Shown piece by piece: positions 3,568 to 10,989 of a stretch of 64,000 nucleotides of DNA; positions within the stretch are counted from its first letter, which is position 1, and each line of letters begins with the position of its first letter. Under the pieces are notes generated by a model. It had not been told where the DNA came from. It ran no database searches and saw only the letters and a list, made by a program, of their open reading frames with translations. Made by a program: the position numbers and the translations under genes. The stretch is from the sequence record SRR22947725_330; one strand, 5' to 3'.

Positions 3568-4914
3568 ATGGCTGGGGGTCGAACGGGTTTGAAGGAGTCT
3601 TTTGTCTCCTTGTCGCTGCCCGACTATCGACGTCTGTGGTGGGCCGGAACGTTCTCGTTCATGGCCGTGCAGATGCAGTTCCTGCTGCGAGGCATTCTCG
3701 CCTGGGAACTCACCGAGCGCGACGGCGCCATTGGGCTCGTCTACCTCGTGTTCGGCGGGACGATGTTGATTGCGACCCCACTCGGTGGTGTCGCAGCAGA
3801 CCGGTTGCCAAAACGGACAGTGATGCTGTGGAGCCAGGTCGCGCTCACCGCAGGCGCCACCGCGATGGGCGTGGCTGTTGTCTCTGGAAATGAACAGTTC
3901 TGGATGCTTGCTGCAGCAGGACTCGTGCAAGGCACTGCGTTCGGCTTCTATGGGCCGGCGCGAGTCGCGTTCACCACCGAGTTGGTCGGCCGAGAACAAC
4001 TCGGCAACGCCATCACCCTGTCGCTCTTGAGCATGAACGGCACTCGTGTCGTCGCTCCGTCGTTGGCCGGCGCCTTGGCCGGTATCGCATTCTTTGGCAT
4101 CGGCGGCGCCTACCTCGTTGCCGGTGCGTTTTCGTTCGTGTCGTTCCTCGCTGTGCTGCGTCTGCCCCGGGTTACGCCTGCCGCCGACCTCCCCCCGGCG
4201 CGGCCGCTGGCTGAGATCATCGACGGGGTGCGCTACGTCCGGTCGCGGCCACACTTGCGTCGACTGCTCGTCAGCTCGTTTGTTGTCATCATGTTTGGCT
4301 TCAACTATGTCGTGTTCATTCCGGCATTGGTCAAAGACACCTTCGACCTCGACAACGACGGTTGGGTTGGCCTGATCAGTTCGGCGGCATCGATCGGTGC
4401 TGTGGCGGTCGGGCTGTGGCTCGCTGGTCGTGCCGATCAGCCAGGACGGTGGAGGGTGATGGCAATCACCGGCACGATCTTCGGTGCGGGCGTCGTTGCG
4501 CTTGCGCTGTCGCCGACCTACTGGGTTGCGGTGTTCGTTGTCATCATCATCGGTGGCGGCACGACCGGATACCAATCTCTGTCAAATGCCATCTCACTGA
4601 ACCTGACCGAACCGTCGCATCAGGGTCGCGTGCAGTCATTGCTGCAGTTGAGCTTCGCCGGGTTCGGCATTGCTGCGCTTCCGCTCGGTTTGCTTGCCGA
4701 GGCGGTTGGCCGTCGCCAGGCGATGGCATTGATGGGCGCAATCGCGACCGCTGCGATCCTGATCTATGCCACGGTCGAACGGTCGGCCCAAGCTGAGATT
4801 GAGGCAGGCGACCCTGAACCGGCACAGGGATCCACTCAGACGCCGACTCCGGACGTGGATGGTCGCAGGCCGGCAACGGAGCTCAAACCGTCAACTCGGC
4901 CAGCTCAGCGGTGA
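3568..4914 (+). CDS. MFS transporter
   Basis: About 12 hydrophobic segments; motif A GGVAADRLPKR. Confidence 0.9.
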   Translation: MAGGRTGLKESFVSLSLPDYRRLWWAGTFSFMAVQMQFLLRGILAWELTERDGAIGLVYLVFGGTMLIATPLGGVAADRLPKRTVMLWSQVALTAGATAMGVAVVSGNEQFWMLAAAGLVQGTAFGFYGPARVAFTTELVGREQLGNAITLSLLSMNGTRVVAPSLAGALAGIAFFGIGGAYLVAGAFSFVSFLAVLRLPRVTPAADLPPARPLAEIIDGVRYVRSRPHLRRLLVSSFVVIMFGFNYVVFIPALVKDTFDLDNDGWVGLISSAASIGAVAVGLWLAGRADQPGRWRVMAITGTIFGAGVVALALSPTYWVAVFVVIIIGGGTTGYQSLSNAISLNLTEPSHQGRVQSLLQLSFAGFGIAALPLGLLAEAVGRRQAMALMGAIATAAILIYATVERSAQAEIEAGDPEPAQGSTQTPTPDVDGRRPATELKPSTRPAQR

Positions 4915-5548
4915 TGTTGACGCGCGCTGCCTCTTCCCACTGCGCTCGTCCGGTTGCAGTGGCATAGATCGTTTGCCGTTCGAGAAACGCTGTGAGCACC
5001 GAGGTCCGGCCAGCGGTCCACTCAGCGTTGTCGAGGTGGCCGTATTCGTCGCGTATTTTCGAGGCGTACCTTTGGTATCCGAGATCGTCGGCGCCGAGGA
5101 TGGCGAGGTCGGCATCGAACAACACGGCGGTGCCGGTATCTGGCGGGTCGACATGTGTTTTGGTTCCCTCGATCATGGTGCCAACCAGAGTCGCTCGTGA
5201 GGTGTCCCACCCGAGCGCCATGAGGTCACGCCGCGCCAGGCGAGCGCTTGCTCGTTCGTTTGCCGGATGCTGCGACTCGTAGATCGCGTCGTGGTAGAGC
5301 GCAGCAGCCACGACCACGCTGAGGTCGTCGATCGACTCATGCGTCGCAAGCTCATCGATGTGGCCGAGCACTGCCTCGACGTGTTCGATGCGGTGATACC
5401 GGCGTTGGCGCTCGCGGTGTCGAAGGACGAGCCGTTCCAGGAGATCGGTGTCGGGGCTGACGTGGGTGGTCCACGCAACTTCAGCCACACCGGGGGGAGC
5501 CTCGTGGCCGGTGGGGTCGTTGTCGCGAGAGGGAGAGGGTGAGTTCAC
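4883..5548 (-). CDS. HD-domain metal-dependent phosphohydrolase (COG4339-like)
   Basis: RRYHRIEH, LYHDAIY, DADLAILG, IRDEYGH. Confidence 0.88.
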   Translation of the reverse strand: MNSPSPSRDNDPTGHEAPPGVAEVAWTTHVSPDTDLLERLVLRHRERQRRYHRIEHVEAVLGHIDELATHESIDDLSVVVAAALYHDAIYESQHPANERASARLARRDLMALGWDTSRATLVGTMIEGTKTHVDPPDTGTAVLFDADLAILGADDLGYQRYASKIRDEYGHLDNAEWTAGRTSVLTAFLERQTIYATATGRAQWEEAARVNITAELAELTV

Positions 5549-5877: not shown

Positions 5878-6312
5878 TCAGCGCGGCCATCGCGCCGGAA
5901 CGCCACAGAACTCACGTGGGCATGAGACCGATGTGCCGACGACAAACCACTCGACGAGCTCAATGTCGGACTCCCAGCATGATCGGTCGGCTTCGTGCCA
6001 TCGGGCCAGGTCGCTGATCTCGAAGTCGACGTTCGGTCGAATCGAGGCAACGACAAGACCGGCGACACCGAGCGATGACCGTGCCGACTCTGTAAGTGCG
6101 TCGATGACGCCGAGCACGGCATCGGGGTCGTCGGTCCCCGACACGTGCGTGATGCTCACACCGCATCGCCGGTGGTCGAGGGTCAGCACCAGCGTTTCGG
6201 CCGATGCCTCGGGGTCGACCATCATCAAGATGAGTCGGAGAGCGACCAGCGGTGCCTCGATCGGATCGATGTGAGCACGCGGCAGATTGCTGAACGACAT
6301 TGATGGAAACAT
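5878..6312 (-). CDS. Hypothetical protein, possible degenerate JAB/RadC-like fold
   Basis: AGGAGG just upstream of ATG 6312. C-terminal DIELVEWFVVG..VSCPRE recalls RadC GIELLDHIIIG..SFRE. Confidence 0.65.
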   Translation of the reverse strand: MFPSMSFSNLPRAHIDPIEAPLVALRLILMMVDPEASAETLVLTLDHRRCGVSITHVSGTDDPDAVLGVIDALTESARSSLGVAGLVVASIRPNVDFEISDLARWHEADRSCWESDIELVEWFVVGTSVSCPREFCGVPARWPR

Positions 6313-6316
6313 GAGA

Positions 6317-6384
6317 CCTCCTGAATGCGTTCGTTGGTGCTTGCCGCACCGCGGGACGAACGCGATGGATGAAATGCCAGGAGG
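6317..6384 (-). promoter_or_regulatory. Structured 5' leader sequestering the SD sequence of 5878-6312
   Basis: Nested stems 6317-6323/6378-6384 (contains AGGAGG), 6327-6334/6356-6363 and 6336-6340/6346-6350. Confidence 0.45.
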
Positions 6385-6462
6385 GAGTCGGTGATCGCGA
6401 CCATAGAGACGTGCTGTCACAGTGTTGAGCAGGTCACGGCGTTGCGCAGTACGGTCAGCGCG

Positions 6463-6969
6463 ATGAGTGACTTCACACCCACCACCGACGAACTTGTCGA
6501 ACTGAACTCTGAGTTCGCTGCGAACTTCTCGGACCACGATCTGCAGGTCGCACCGATGCGCCAGATGGCGGTTGTGGCCTGCATGGATTCCCGGATGGAT
6601 ACGTTCAAGTTACTCGGGCTGGAAAACGGCGAGGCGCACATCATCCGCAATGCTGGCGGGATCGTGTCCGACGACGTGATCCGCTCGCTGTGTCTCAGTC
6701 AGCGCGCACTCGGCACCCGTGAAATTGTCCTGGTGCACCACACCGACTGCGGCCTGGAGAAGGTCACCGACGATGGCTTCAAGAATCAGCTCGAAGCCGA
6801 GCTCGGTATCAAGCCACGGTGGTCTGTCGAATCATTCGTTGACCCCTACGCAGACGTCCGTCAGTCAATGCAGCGACTGCTGGTCACGCCATTTGTCGAC
6901 GCCACGTACATGCGCGGTTTCGTCTACGACGTGACCACAGGTGCGATCAACGAAGTCACGCTCGACTGA
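6463..6969 (+). CDS. Beta-class carbonic anhydrase
   Basis: CMDSR, IRNAGG and HHTDCG zinc motifs. Confidence 0.93.
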   Translation: MSDFTPTTDELVELNSEFAANFSDHDLQVAPMRQMAVVACMDSRMDTFKLLGLENGEAHIIRNAGGIVSDDVIRSLCLSQRALGTREIVLVHHTDCGLEKVTDDGFKNQLEAELGIKPRWSVESFVDPYADVRQSMQRLLVTPFVDATYMRGFVYDVTTGAINEVTLD

Positions 6970-7045
6970 CGGCCACCCTGAGGTCGCCAACTCTACAGAA
7001 CAACCGATGGGGCTGCGGCGCCGCCCGGGTTCTATTCTGATCGAT

Positions 7046-7399
7046 ATGGCTGATGTTCGGATCTATCACAACCAGCATTGAAACTCTTCAGTCAATGCCG
7101 TGCGCATTGCAGAAGAACTCGGTGTCGACTTCGAGACGGTCAACTACATCAAGAACCCGCCGGACGCTGACGAGATTGGTGGCATCATCGCCAAACTTGA
7201 AGACCCAGCCACCGACCTGGTCCGACGCGACAGCAAGTTCAAGAAGCTCGAGCTGACCGACGACGATGTGGCAACCGACGACCAGATCGTGGACATCCTC
7301 GTCAAACACAAGCAGCTGCTCCAGCGCCCCGTTGTCGTCACCAAGCAGGTGGCCATCATCGGCCGACCAAAGGGCCGCGTCACTGAGCTTTTGAGCTGA
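7046..7399 (+). CDS. arsC: ArsC-family (glutaredoxin-type arsenate reductase-like) selenoprotein, Sec at codon 12
   Basis: MADVRIYHNQH-TGA-NSS. H8, U12, S15, R60, R94 and R107 match the numbering of R773 ArsC. SECIS-like hairpin follows the TGA. Confidence 0.85.
7085..7116 (+). promoter_or_regulatory. Bacterial SECIS-like hairpin
   Basis: Lower stem TCTTC/GAAGA, upper stem CAATGC/GCATTG, loop CGTGC containing GU, directly 3' of TGA 7079-7081. Confidence 0.72.
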
Positions 7400-7414
7400 G
7401 CGGCGCACCGAACG

Positions 7415-9211
7415 ATGGCGGATGCTGAACCCAGAATTCGCGCCAAGAGTCGTTGGGGGCTGCTGACAGCCACGTTGTCAGAGCAGCGACGCAACCTGAT
7501 CATCGGCACCGTCATCGGATTGGCGTGGATGGCAGGCAAGGTCGCCGTGCCGCGACTCGTCGGGCTCGGCATCGACCGGGGCATCGAAGGCGACGACAAC
7601 GTCTGGATGTGGGCCGGGTTCATCGCCTGCGCAGGAGTCATCGTCGGGTTCTTCACCGCCTTCCGACGGTTCTACGCGTTTCGCGAGGCGCGCTGGACCG
7701 AGACGAGGTTACGCGAGCGGCTTTTCGGCCACATCATGTCGCTCCACGTCGGATATCACGACCGAGCCCAGACCGGCCAGCTGATGAGCCGCTCGTCGAG
7801 CGACCTGCAGCAGATTCAGCAGTTCGTTGTGATGATTCCAATCACCGCGTCGAACCTGGCGATGATCCTGGTGGTCACCGTGATCCTGGTCATCACCAAC
7901 CCATTCCTCGCTCTGGTGGCCCTTGCCCCGCTGCCGTTCGTCAACTGGGCCGGTCGACGCTTCTCCCACTCCATCCACCCTGCTGTACAGGCTGTGCAAG
8001 CCGAGCAGGCCGAACTCGCCACTGTCGTCGAGGAGTCAATCGGCGGCATTCGCGTCGTCAAGGGCTTTGGTGCGGAGCAGGTGCAGGCGGACAAGCTGAG
8101 CAAGGAAGCAGACGACATCCGTCGGGTGTCGATTGAGGCAGCGCGCATTCGGGCGAAGTTTCTGCCGGCGATCGAGCTCCTGCCGCAGATCGGCCTCATC
8201 GCCGTGCTCGGCGTGGGTGGCATGCAGGTCATCGACGGTGACCTCACGCTTGGTCAACTCGTGCAGTTCAACTTCTACGTTGCGCTCCTCGTGGCGCCCT
8301 TACGCATGCTGGGCATGGCCATTGCCTGGGGCCAACGCGCGGCTGCAGCGATCGAACGGGTCAACGAGGTGCTCGACACCGTGCCCATCGTGAGCGACGC
8401 CACCGATCCAACGACGCTTCCAACCGGCACGGGCCTCGGCGCTGTCAGCTTCGGCAATCTTGACTTCGGATATGCACCGGAACTCCCCGTGCTCACCGAC
8501 TTCGAGCTGGAGCTGGAGGCAGGCCAATCGATTGCCCTGGTGGGAGGCACTGGATCCGGCAAGTCAACGGTCGCCCGTCTGCTCATCCGGTTCTACGACG
8601 TCGACGCCGGGTCGATCCAGATCGACGGCGTCGATATCCGCGACCTCACGTTGCACGAGCTACGTCAAGCTGTCGGCATTGTCTTCGAAGACACACTGCT
8701 GTTCCATGATTCGGTGAGCGCCAACATTGCGTTCGCCCACCCCGATACCGACCAGGCAGCGGTCGAGAGCGCCGCTCGCTTGGCTGGAGCACACGACTTC
8801 ATCATGGGGCTGCCTGACGCATACGACACTCGGTTGGGTGAGCGCGGTTACTCGCTGTCCGGCGGCCAGCGCCAGCGCATTGCCATCGCCCGGGCTATCT
8901 TGGCCGACCCGCGAGTGTTGGTGCTCGACGACGCAACCTCTGCTGTCGACCCGTCAAAGGAGCACGAGATTCGATCCGCGATGTCGACGGTGATGGATGG
9001 TCGCACGACCATCGTCATTGCGCACCGGCCGGGGACCATCGCCCTGGCAGATCGGGTCGCGCTACTCGACGGGGGTCGCGTCGCAGCGATTGGTACCCAT
9101 GACGAGCTGCTCGCCACCGACCAGCGCTACCGCGACGTGCTCGCCGCTATGGATCGGCCTGACGATGCGTCTGTGCCCGCAGGTAGCGCGCCTGACGGAG
9201 GCGCGGACTGA
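7415..9211 (+). CDS. ABC exporter, fused TMD-NBD (heterodimer subunit 1)
   Basis: GGTGSGKST, LSGGQRQR and LVLDD (degenerate Walker B). Confidence 0.93.
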   Translation: MADAEPRIRAKSRWGLLTATLSEQRRNLIIGTVIGLAWMAGKVAVPRLVGLGIDRGIEGDDNVWMWAGFIACAGVIVGFFTAFRRFYAFREARWTETRLRERLFGHIMSLHVGYHDRAQTGQLMSRSSSDLQQIQQFVVMIPITASNLAMILVVTVILVITNPFLALVALAPLPFVNWAGRRFSHSIHPAVQAVQAEQAELATVVEESIGGIRVVKGFGAEQVQADKLSKEADDIRRVSIEAARIRAKFLPAIELLPQIGLIAVLGVGGMQVIDGDLTLGQLVQFNFYVALLVAPLRMLGMAIAWGQRAAAAIERVNEVLDTVPIVSDATDPTTLPTGTGLGAVSFGNLDFGYAPELPVLTDFELELEAGQSIALVGGTGSGKSTVARLLIRFYDVDAGSIQIDGVDIRDLTLHELRQAVGIVFEDTLLFHDSVSANIAFAHPDTDQAAVESAARLAGAHDFIMGLPDAYDTRLGERGYSLSGGQRQRIAIARAILADPRVLVLDDATSAVDPSKEHEIRSAMSTVMDGRTTIVIAHRPGTIALADRVALLDGGRVAAIGTHDELLATDQRYRDVLAAMDRPDDASVPAGSAPDGGAD

Positions 9212-10989
9212 TGTGGGCGATGAACGCAATCGACGAAGACGATCGTCTGGACACTGACGAGGCTCGGCAAGTCATTCGTCGCGCGGCTCGAATGGCCGCT
9301 CCGTTCAAACGGACCGTGATGGCGGCGATCGGATTCTCCTCGATCACCACGCTCGGGCTGCTGCTCGGTCCGGTGATCGTCAAGTACGGCATCGACAGTG
9401 GTATTCGACAGCTCGACCGCGGCGTCGTTCGCAATGCCGTCATCATGTATATCTGCGTCGTCGCGGCCGCGTATCTTGCATCGCGCCAGCAGTACGTGTT
9501 CATCAACCGGGCTGGCGAAGGATTCCTCAGACTGCTGCGCGTGCGCGTGTTTGGACACATGCAGAAACAGTCGTTGGCCTTTTTCGATCGGAACAAATCC
9601 GGCGTGCTCGTTGCCCGAATGACTGCAGACATCGAGTCGATGGCCGAGCTGGTGCAGTGGGGCCTCCTGCAGTTTGTCGGTGCCGGGCTCCTCGTGACGT
9701 TCTCCTTCATCTTGCTCCTGGTGTTGAGCTGGCAGTTGACCATCGTCGCGCTCCTCGTCTTTCCCGTCCTGGTCATCGCGGCGCGCAAGTTCCAGCGCGA
9801 CTCGAATGCCGCGTATCTCGATGTCCGTGAACAGGTCGGTCAGAACTTGTCGACCCTGCAAGAGGGCATCGCCGGTGTCCGTGTCATCCAGGCATACGCC
9901 AGGGAGCCGGAGCAGGTCCGACGCTTCGAAACGTCGAACCGCGGCTTGTACCAGTCGCACATCCACAGCCTGCGGGTATCAACCTGGTTCTTCGGACTCG
10001 TCGAAGCAGCAGGCATCATCGCCTCTGCCTTGGCAATCGGCATTGGAGGGTGGCTCGTCAACCGCGGTGACGTCAGCATCGGCACGGTGATCGCGGTCGT
10101 GTTGCTGCTCGCACAACTCTTCGAGCCGGTCCAGCAGCTCAGTCAGCTTTACAACACGGTGCAATCGTCGGCGGCATCGCTCAGCAAGCTCTTCGGGATC
10201 CTGGACACCACGCCAGACCTCCTGGATGGCGAACAGGTGCTCCCGGCCGCTGGGGCCGTCACCGTCACCGGAGTCGGTTTCCGTTACCCCGAAACCGAAG
10301 GGAAGGTCCTCAACGACGTGTCGATCAGCGTTGCAGATGGCGAACGATTAGCGGTAGTCGGCTCCACGGGGTCTGGCAAGTCGACCCTCGCGAAGCTGAT
10401 GGCCCGCCTATACGACCCGACCGACGGCACGATCACGTTCGGCGGCGTCGATCTGCGCGACGCCACGCTCGCATCACTGCGCGACCGGGTGGTCGTCGTG
10501 CCCCAGGAGGGCTACCTGTTCGGCGGCACGATCGCAGACAACGTCCGCGTCGCGCGCGCCGCGGCCACCGACGCGGAGGTGAGCAAGGCACTTGCAGCGA
10601 TCGGTGCCCTCGACCGGTTCGAGCAGTTCGAAGATGGCATCCACACCGAGGTGCGGGAGCGCGGCTCACGACTGTCGGCAGGGGAGCGGCAGCTGGTCTC
10701 CTTGGCACGCGCAGCGTTGGTCGACCCGGCGATGCTGGTGCTCGACGAGGCGACCAGCAACCTCGATCCTGGCACCGAAGCTGTAGTTGAGCAGGCCCTC
10801 GAATCGCTGATGAACGGGCGGACCACGATCGCGGTCGCTCACCGGTTGTCGACCATTCAACGCGCCGATCGAATTGCGGTCATCGACGCTGGGGAACTCG
10901 TCGAGCTCGGCTCACACGACGAACTCCTTGCCCTCGACGGCCGATACACGAAACTTGCCACCGCCTGGGCCAGCAGCCAGCCGTCATAA
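9211..10989 (+). CDS. ABC exporter, fused TMD-NBD (heterodimer subunit 2)
   Basis: GSTGSGKST, LSAGERQ, LVLDEATS; TGATG coupling to the previous gene. Confidence 0.93.
   Translation: MWAMNAIDEDDRLDTDEARQVIRRAARMAAPFKRTVMAAIGFSSITTLGLLLGPVIVKYGIDSGIRQLDRGVVRNAVIMYICVVAAAYLASRQQYVFINRAGEGFLRLLRVRVFGHMQKQSLAFFDRNKSGVLVARMTADIESMAELVQWGLLQFVGAGLLVTFSFILLLVLSWQLTIVALLVFPVLVIAARKFQRDSNAAYLDVREQVGQNLSTLQEGIAGVRVIQAYAREPEQVRRFETSNRGLYQSHIHSLRVSTWFFGLVEAAGIIASALAIGIGGWLVNRGDVSIGTVIAVVLLLAQLFEPVQQLSQLYNTVQSSAASLSKLFGILDTTPDLLDGEQVLPAAGAVTVTGVGFRYPETEGKVLNDVSISVADGERLAVVGSTGSGKSTLAKLMARLYDPTDGTITFGGVDLRDATLASLRDRVVVVPQEGYLFGGTIADNVRVARAAATDAEVSKALAAIGALDRFEQFEDGIHTEVRERGSRLSAGERQLVSLARAALVDPAMLVLDEATSNLDPGTEAVVEQALESLMNGRTTIAVAHRLSTIQRADRIAVIDAGELVELGSHDELLALDGRYTKLATAWASSQPS

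Follow-up and report, generated by a model that had tools for sequence, protein, structure and literature searches.

The 64,000-nucleotide stretch of DNA from sequence record SRR22947725_330 that is considered here (the window) very probably encodes, at 7046-7399, a genuine selenocysteine-containing protein of the ArsC family, with an in-frame UGA in the place of the codon for the catalytic cysteine. A selenocysteine (Sec)-dependent ArsC from an Acidimicrobiia-like actinobacterium had been proposed in a first-pass annotation of the sequence, and the proposal is supported by the pairing of Sec with cysteine at one codon across orthologues, by a hairpin specific to the Sec forms, by the presence of the Sec machinery in the nearest genome and by the retention of TGA in independent contigs. 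The source organism is a marine Ilumatobacter (Acidimicrobiia, an actinobacterium): the closest named records are Ilumatobacter metagenome-assembled genomes (MAGs), at 98% and 97% identity, followed by other Ilumatobacteraceae and Acidimicrobiales. The selenoprotein family itself has been known since 2005, and the case is one of routine mis-annotation, not of discovery. The elements of the locus are the following.

7033..7038, + strand: -10-like hexamer TATTCT (TANNNT), 7 nucleotides (nt) before ATG 7046
7046..7399, + strand: full coding sequence of the predicted Sec-containing ArsC-family protein, 117 amino acids (aa); start ATG 7046, stop TGA 7397-7399
7079..7081, + strand: predicted UGA Sec codon, codon 12, on the catalytic Cys12 of R773 ArsC; motif U-N-S-S (UxxS)
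7085..7116, + strand: hairpin resembling a selenocysteine insertion sequence (SECIS), within the coding sequence, from the minimum free energy (MFE) fold and comparative data
7100..7102, + strand: GTG (Val19), the false start of open reading frame (ORF) and gene callers, which yields a 99-aa product; also the GUG of the SECIS apical loop

Reading frame and protein product

Translated from ATG 7046-7048, the frame reads MADVRIYHNQH, meets TGA at 7079-7081 and continues as NSSVNAVRIAEE..., for a total of 117 residues that include no cysteine. The program-made ORF list offers solely a 99-aa ORF with a GTG start at this locus (7100-7399), just as the first-pass annotation had remarked in setting its own read-through frame, with TGA at codon 12, beside an ORF track that opens at 7100; the sequence confirms that longer frame. 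Profile searches of the 117-aa product were run with C standing in for U. The Pfam ArsC family (PF03960) matches residues 7-114 with 47.6 bits (cut-off 24), and the TIGR00014 model, 'arsenate reductase (glutaredoxin)', is matched over positions 1-114 of its 114, with 87.5 bits. The Spx/MgsR model TIGR01617 scores 56.5, under its cut-off of 75.05, and the model for an arsenate reductase-like selenoprotein, NF041106, gives no match at E <= 0.01.

The best matches in the PDB are arsenate reductases over their full length (3rdw, 5e-17; R773 ArsC, 1i9d/1jzw, 8e-16). Alignment to R773 ArsC (1i9d) is colinear, 1-116 on 1-116, and puts position 12 of the window protein on Cys12. H8, S15, R60, R94 and R107 likewise coincide with the corresponding R773 residues, so that the residue correspondences first listed, together with the lack of cysteine, are borne out by alignment and translation. 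These residues and position 12 are presumably catalytic in the roles that the ArsC literature assigns to them.

Selenocysteine and cysteine at codon 12

The query protein was compared with 201 genomes of the same GTDB family, of which 148 were matched at E <= 1e-8, in 149 places; one of these (L167) was dropped because its N-terminal match is missing, leaving for analysis the window and 148 orthologues from 147 genomes. The pairs of cysteine and TGA at codon 12 that a selenoprotein family would lead one to look for are abundant: of the 149 rows, 100 have TGA, 46 have TGC and three have TGT, in every case at this one codon of the alignment. (TGA is also found in 80 of 80 named relatives, but this sample is biased, having been taken as the 80 best of 173 in order of similarity to a Sec-form query.) The 11 codons that precede TGA are conserved as protein, with H8 kept in 149 of 149 rows and N9 in 148. 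S15 and R60 are kept in all 149 rows, R94 and R107 in 147. Cysteine is otherwise nearly absent from the family: 99 of the 100 Sec forms have none, and in 46 of the 49 Cys forms the residue at position 12 is the only one. On a quick maximum-likelihood tree of 148 rows (the partial L163 excluded and codon 12 masked), at least 14 changes between Sec and Cys are required.

Codon 11 (window 7076-7078) has its own peculiarity. Of the 100 Sec forms, 96 have T as its last letter (CAT or AAT); in 22 close Cys forms it is AAC in 14, and C-ending codons dominate at codons 8 and 9. The U immediately 5' of the Sec-UGA seems to be under selection.

The window stretch occurs in the runs of 14 studies. Contigs from two DNA runs (X1 and X4) and two RNA-library runs (X17 and X18) were compared with it over 6900-7500; all four cover 7079-7081 and read TGA, with no other letter. 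A sequence error at this codon is thereby excluded, none of these contigs having TGC or TGT. Strain variants nearby affect pairing in the hairpin that is described next: with 7093 C>T, the first pair of the upper stem becomes U-G and is kept; 7117 A>G makes U-G of a U7084-A7117 pair that some strains have; and 7090 A>T gives a U that pairs with A7111.

A hairpin conserved in the selenocysteine forms

The MFE fold of 7079-7138 reproduces the two-stem hairpin with its bulged U and loop GU that had been drawn by eye in the first-pass annotation. Its lower stem pairs UCUUC (7085-7089) with GAAGA (7112-7116), its upper stem pairs CAAUGC (7093-7098) with GCAUUG (7104-7109) around an apical loop CGUGC (7099-7103), and between the two stems lie a lone G7091-C7110 pair and the bulged U7092. 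In bacterial SECIS elements the apical-loop G(U) lies 16-37 nt past the UGA. The window's stem-loop is directly 3' of its UGA and the loop G and U are 19 and 20 nt past the A of that codon, as in a bacterial SECIS.

What distinguishes this hairpin is its behavior in relatives. The codons that build the stem are strongly preferred in the Sec forms: AAT at codon 17 in 81 of 100, GCC at codon 18 in 94, GTG at codon 19 in 92 and ATT at codon 21 in 83. These are rare or unusual synonymous choices for a GC-rich lineage, and in 22 Cys forms of at least 55% identity the commonest codons are AAC (13), GCG (13) and ATC (18). When 98 distinct Sec sequences are aligned without gaps, the six pairs of the upper stem are each present in 82-98 of them, and 75.7% of cells are paired, compared with 27-45% after a shift of the 3' partners by 1-3 columns. 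The same six pairs form in only 8-36 of 48 Cys sequences, with 50.9% of cells paired. The hairpin is thus kept in Sec forms and not in Cys forms, as would be expected of a SECIS, and the comparison supports selection at the level of RNA in the Sec forms only.

The core motif of the Sec forms is CAAUGC-CGUGN-GCAUUG (window 7093-7109). Among 52 named close relatives (43 distinct sequences) with this type-1 hairpin, each of the 43 forms all six pairs and has the loop CGUGC without variation; the few changes in the stem (to U-G twice, to G-U once) all keep pairing. Thirteen of the 100 Sec forms lie outside the core motif, 11 with other hairpins at the same place and two with a weakened type-1 stem. 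In more distant named relatives there is a second type, with a 7-base-pair stem and a GGUC loop that is invariant in 28 of 28. Three pairs of its stem have undergone double compensatory substitutions (UA to CG and GC to AU, three times each, and CG to GC once). The family therefore contains at least two SECIS types, the second with true covariation. The lower stem is made of the first and second codon positions of Ser-Ser and Glu-Glu, with the wobble positions pairing about half the time; since the Cys forms have those first and second positions as well, it is not specific evidence.

Selenocysteine machinery in the nearest genome

G001, the nearest genome searched, has 37% of sampled 31-mers in common with the window, for a calculated identity of ~97%, and is 97% complete. 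The parts of the Sec machinery that had been proposed as a check on the reading are all there and all score over their cut-offs: selD (376 bits), selA (405 bits), selB (287 bits) and tRNA-Sec (65 bits), the last also called as tRNA-SeC, with anticodon TCA, by ARAGORN. (Within the window itself ARAGORN finds no tRNA.) Across the GTDB family, selA is found in 169 of 201 genomes. It accompanies the Sec form in 95 of 98 genomes and the Cys form in 35 of 49, the other 14 being without it; 14 of the 17 selA-lacking genomes that have an orthologue have the Cys form.

Some details of this machinery deserve mention on their own account. In G001, selB lies directly downstream of selA on the same strand, 15 nt away (G001:C20:48473-50715). 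The selD gene of the same genome also codes for a selenoprotein, its frame containing a TGA in the context SHGAG-U-GCKL (locus L001, which is G001:C28, minus strand; L001 1501-2424). Two hairpins follow the selD UGA, and the second, GGCGCAC-GUG-GUGCGCC, resembles the ArsC hairpin in the GUG core of its loop.

A promoter-like hexamer and a probable leaderless start

The -10 hexamer TATTCT that had been picked out 7 nt upstream of ATG 7046 belongs to a conserved pattern. In 99 orthologues the aligned position holds a start codon that is preceded by 60 nt of available sequence; a TANNNT ends 6-8 nt before the start codon in 88 of these, while in five other windows of 7 nt the count is 0, 0, 0, 2 and 0. 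A Shine-Dalgarno-like core is present in only eight of the 99. Leaderless mRNAs are common in Actinomycetota, and the transcript of the window gene would probably start at or near A7046.

One observation touches on this point from another side. The X17 contig, from an RNA library and with a low depth of 2.7, spans 6933-7092 and so covers the intergenic stretch 6933-7045, upstream of the proposed leaderless start. RNA-library contigs give no transcript start, strand or level, and DNA is possibly present in such libraries. The upstream coverage could be read-through from the carbonic anhydrase gene, carry-over of a relative's DNA, or evidence against a strictly leaderless transcript.

How the gene may work

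Incorporation of selenium, binding of SelB, a leaderless mRNA, arsenate as substrate and a particular thiol partner are inferred, in the following scheme. A leaderless mRNA would be transcribed from the -10 box at 7033-7038. At the UGA of codon 12, the hairpin at 7085-7116, which starts 4 nt past the UGA, would recruit SelB with Sec-tRNA(Sec), its upper stem of six base pairs presenting the CGUGC loop, and Sec would be inserted in place of termination. The product would be a glutaredoxin-type ArsC-family reductase with U12 for Cys12, H8, S15 and the Arg60/Arg94/Arg107 triad. Since it contains no other cysteine, the single-nucleophile mechanism of R773 ArsC is to be expected: Sec would attack arsenate, an external thiol would resolve the adduct, and arsenite would be released and exported by ACR3.

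G001 does contain an ACR3 arsenite exporter (393 bits, on another contig), and the orthologue of the window gene is its only PF03960 match; no pI258-type (low-molecular-weight protein tyrosine phosphatase-like) ArsC was found in that genome. That the window protein is a single-selenol ArsC reducing arsenate for export by ACR3 is, to judge from sequence, likely.

A wider proposition combines these elements. In marine Ilumatobacter, a single arsenate reductase would feed ACR3, and it would be a selenoenzyme. Its mRNA would be leaderless, the Sec-UGA standing only 33 nt from the 5' end and the SECIS fitting into the first 71 nt. The family would also exchange whole SECIS types (CGUGN or GGUC loop) and toggle between Sec and Cys, at least 14 times within one bacterial family. 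We put this forward tentatively, as less likely than not. If it were true, arsenic detoxification in these bacteria would depend on selenium supply, and recoding by SelB and SECIS would need to function on leaderless mRNA initiated by 70S ribosomes.

Observations on the other side and alternative explanations

A number of results weigh against the interpretation offered above, whether in respect of the hairpin, of the Sec machinery or of the function. As to the hairpin, its single-sequence folding energy is unremarkable (z -1.09, with 26 of 200 shuffles at least as stable), and the case for it therefore depends on the comparative data, which make it non-random. Over the 45 nt past the codon, the MFE is much the same in Sec and Cys forms (-14.55 vs -14.03, p 0.65); GC-rich coding sequence folds anyway. 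RNAalifold, run on the 98 Sec sequences, yields no consensus structure, possibly due to the 11 sequences with other hairpins that are mixed in. Two measures of covariation, covarying pairs and pair types, are matched by 327 and 494 of 500 shuffles, respectively, so that the support for the type-1 hairpin is one of conservation and not of covariation. Rfam gives no match, either for the whole window at gathering thresholds or for 6950-7250 at E <= 10.

As to the machinery, it is known from G001 only, a proxy of ~97% identity. Three genomes with the Sec form have no selA match (their completeness is 78, 86 and 90%), and a test of Sec against selA by phylogenetically independent pairs finds four supported pairs, with a median p of 1. 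Given that kinship links the genomes and that no more than those four pairs were available for the test, the table of selA against Sec and Cys (95/3 vs 35/14) is suggestive only.

As to function, the product may be a real selenoprotein with some other task, for example as a redox protein of the ArsC fold with a different oxyanion as substrate or a part in thiol/selenol exchange; 'arsenate reductase' would then name its family and nothing more. This alternative leaves the Sec reading intact, as it bears on function alone. It draws on the TIGR00014 score, which at 87.5 bits, with C scored for U, is below the equivalog cut-off of 106.05. It draws also on genomic context, in that no ars genes adjoin the window locus, and the ACR3 gene of G001 has beside it, among the ORFs scanned, no ars-related Pfam family (no recognizable arsR or arsC). 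Furthermore, no glutathione synthetase of G001 reaches its cut-off, the best gshB-like match having 73 bits against 299 (G001:C38:17668-18375), which makes the canonical glutathione/glutaredoxin partner doubtful; the best match to MshC, with 408 bits, is likewise below the TIGR03447 cut-off of 485 (G001:C108:48667-49743). According to the available part of a 2026 review (PMC13188914), the functions of nearly all such selenoproteins are uncharacterized. What tells against a different function is that the full catalytic set of R773 ArsC (H8, the nucleophile at 12, S15, R60, R94 and R107) is kept in 147-149 of 149 rows, that the best structural matches are full-length arsenate reductases, and that this is the only candidate arsenate reductase, among those searched for, in a genome that also has ACR3. 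We consider the alternative unlikely and retain arsenate reduction as the preferred function.

It is very improbable that the UGA is read through without selenium, whether by near-cognate insertion of Cys or Trp or in a reassigned code, instead of by SelB and a SECIS. In its favor it can be said that the Sec reading comes from sequence, and the Sec machinery from a proxy genome. However, TGA terminates both this ArsC gene and the upstream carbonic anhydrase gene; the organism accordingly uses TGA as a stop, and the codon is not reassigned. The complete Sec machinery of G001, the conserved hairpin specific to Sec forms and the prevalence of the Cys form in selA-lacking genomes (the 14 of 17 already referred to) all favor Sec.

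Least credible of all is that TGA is a true stop, leaving a pseudogene or a 99-aa protein that begins at GTG 7100: gene callers do yield that product and the single-sequence hairpin energy is ordinary, but the upstream 11 codons, including H8 and N9, are conserved as protein, 100 of 149 rows have TGA exactly in the column of the catalytic Cys and the tree requires at least 14 switches, a nonsense mutation would neither recur nor be retained in so many genera and in MAGs assigned to other phyla, the promoter-like hexamer precedes ATG 7046 and not 7100, and the 99-aa product would be without nucleophile, H8 and S15.

Relation to known selenoproteins and arsenate reductases

The existence of Sec-containing ArsC-like proteins in marine metagenomes, which the first-pass annotation cited, is a matter of record. 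As far as the consulted parts of these publications go, 14 Sec-containing arsenate reductases (COG1393, UxxS) with predicted SECIS elements were described from the Sargasso Sea by Zhang, Fomenko and Gladyshev in 2005 (PMC1088965), 'ArsC 1' (pfam03960/COG1393/TIGR00014, UxxS) in marine metagenomes appears again in Zhang and Gladyshev in 2008 (PMC2398784), and the review PMC13188914 lists 'Arsenate reductase, TIGR00014, UxxS'. The UxxS motif (U12-N-S-S15) and the shared domain place the window gene in this published Sec-ArsC 1 family. The two agree, within the same portions of those sources, in Pfam family, in Sec at the catalytic Cys, in a SECIS directly 3' of the UGA, in marine origin and in having widespread Cys homologues, and they differ in nothing categorical. 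The consulted parts make no mention, for ArsC 1, of a leaderless signature, of two SECIS types or of a false GUG start; judged by titles and the openings of abstracts, no publication found on selenocysteine in Ilumatobacter concerns this gene, and judged by titles and abstracts, none of those found deals with bacterial leaderless selenoprotein mRNAs. The additions made here are small: a leaderless-promoter signature that is conserved, SECIS elements of two interchangeable types within the family, and no fewer than 14 switches between Sec and Cys. They leave the general view of bacterial selenoproteins unchanged.

The glutaredoxin-coupled ArsC of R773 and E. coli (1i9d, 1jzw and mutant entries) is colinear with the window protein, and both have a single nucleophile and no resolving Cys. 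They differ in that the window protein would have Sec for Cys12, has 117 aa instead of 141, with no C-terminal extension, is encoded outside an ars operon and has a doubtful glutathione/glutaredoxin partner. Arsenate reductase 2 (cd03032, NF041106; UxxC) and Spx/MgsR (TIGR01617) share the ArsC/Spx fold superfamily with the window protein and likewise have Sec or Cys close to the N-terminus, but the motif in the window is UxxS, not the UxxC of arsenate reductase 2.

The SECIS of E. coli fdhF has a GGUC loop and a bulged U17. By analogy, the window hairpin is like it in lying a few nt past the UGA within the coding sequence, in the loop G-U at about 19-20 nt and in the bulged U, and the second SECIS type of the ArsC family also has the GGUC loop. 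The window's own loop, in contrast, is CGUGC, and no Rfam model matches the window.

Annotation and distribution

Standard annotation does truncate these genes, as had been foreseen. The nearest database proteins are mostly of 99 aa and cover 84% of the query, some under the name 'arsenate reductase' or 'arsenate reductase family protein'; the entries of 117-125 aa have lower identity (68-79%) and are presumably Cys forms. Truncated annotation of such genes is a general problem, as is pointed out in the BSepDB paper (PMC13326102) in the part available. The 99-aa entries, which lack the active site, make a clean case of systematic mis-annotation, with a false start inside the SECIS loop. Because most of the nearest relatives appear in public protein sets as such fragments, metabolic reconstructions of abundant marine Acidimicrobiia under-read both the selenoproteome and arsenic detoxification. 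The 100:49 split between Sec and Cys, with its switches, provides a dense natural data set on the circumstances that favor Sec over Cys. The family is experimentally accessible, since a cultured strain, Ilumatobacter nonamiensis YM16-303, has the Sec form, with TGA (L207).

The named loci (the best 80 of 173) include contigs labelled as Verrucomicrobiales/Akkermansiaceae, Vicinamibacteraceae, Planctomycetota and Gammaproteobacteria. Errors of binning may account for some of these labels. The Sec-ArsC genes on contigs labelled as other phyla are 73-91% identical and have an identical type-1 hairpin core; such contigs are L172 and L176 (Azotimanducaceae/Gammaproteobacteria), L198, L210, L212 and L216-L218 (Vicinamibacteraceae/Vicinamibacteria) and L211 (Planctomycetota). 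L172 and L176 share the Ilumatobacter order of carbonic anhydrase and ABC genes and look mis-binned. For the Vicinamibacteraceae-labelled contigs it is either horizontal transfer or mis-binning.

Neighbouring genes

The ArsC gene has as neighbours genes for a DUF4031 protein and, upstream, a beta-carbonic anhydrase, together with two ABC exporter genes that start 16 nt downstream. These neighbours are kept, among the 80 named loci, in 31 (ABC exporter), 21 (beta-carbonic anhydrase) and 23 (DUF4031), all of them close relatives; gene order was considered as a functional link and rejected, being conserved among close relatives only. Two ORFs on the minus strand, 4883-5548 and 5878-6537, of ~220 aa each, have no Pfam match at E <= 0.001. 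The second of these overlaps the 5' end of the listed carbonic anhydrase ORF, and one of the two starts is probably wrong. The ABC exporter pair (7415-9211 and 9211-10989, + strand; ABC_membrane and ABC_tran domains) is of the heterodimer type, its two genes overlapping by one base.

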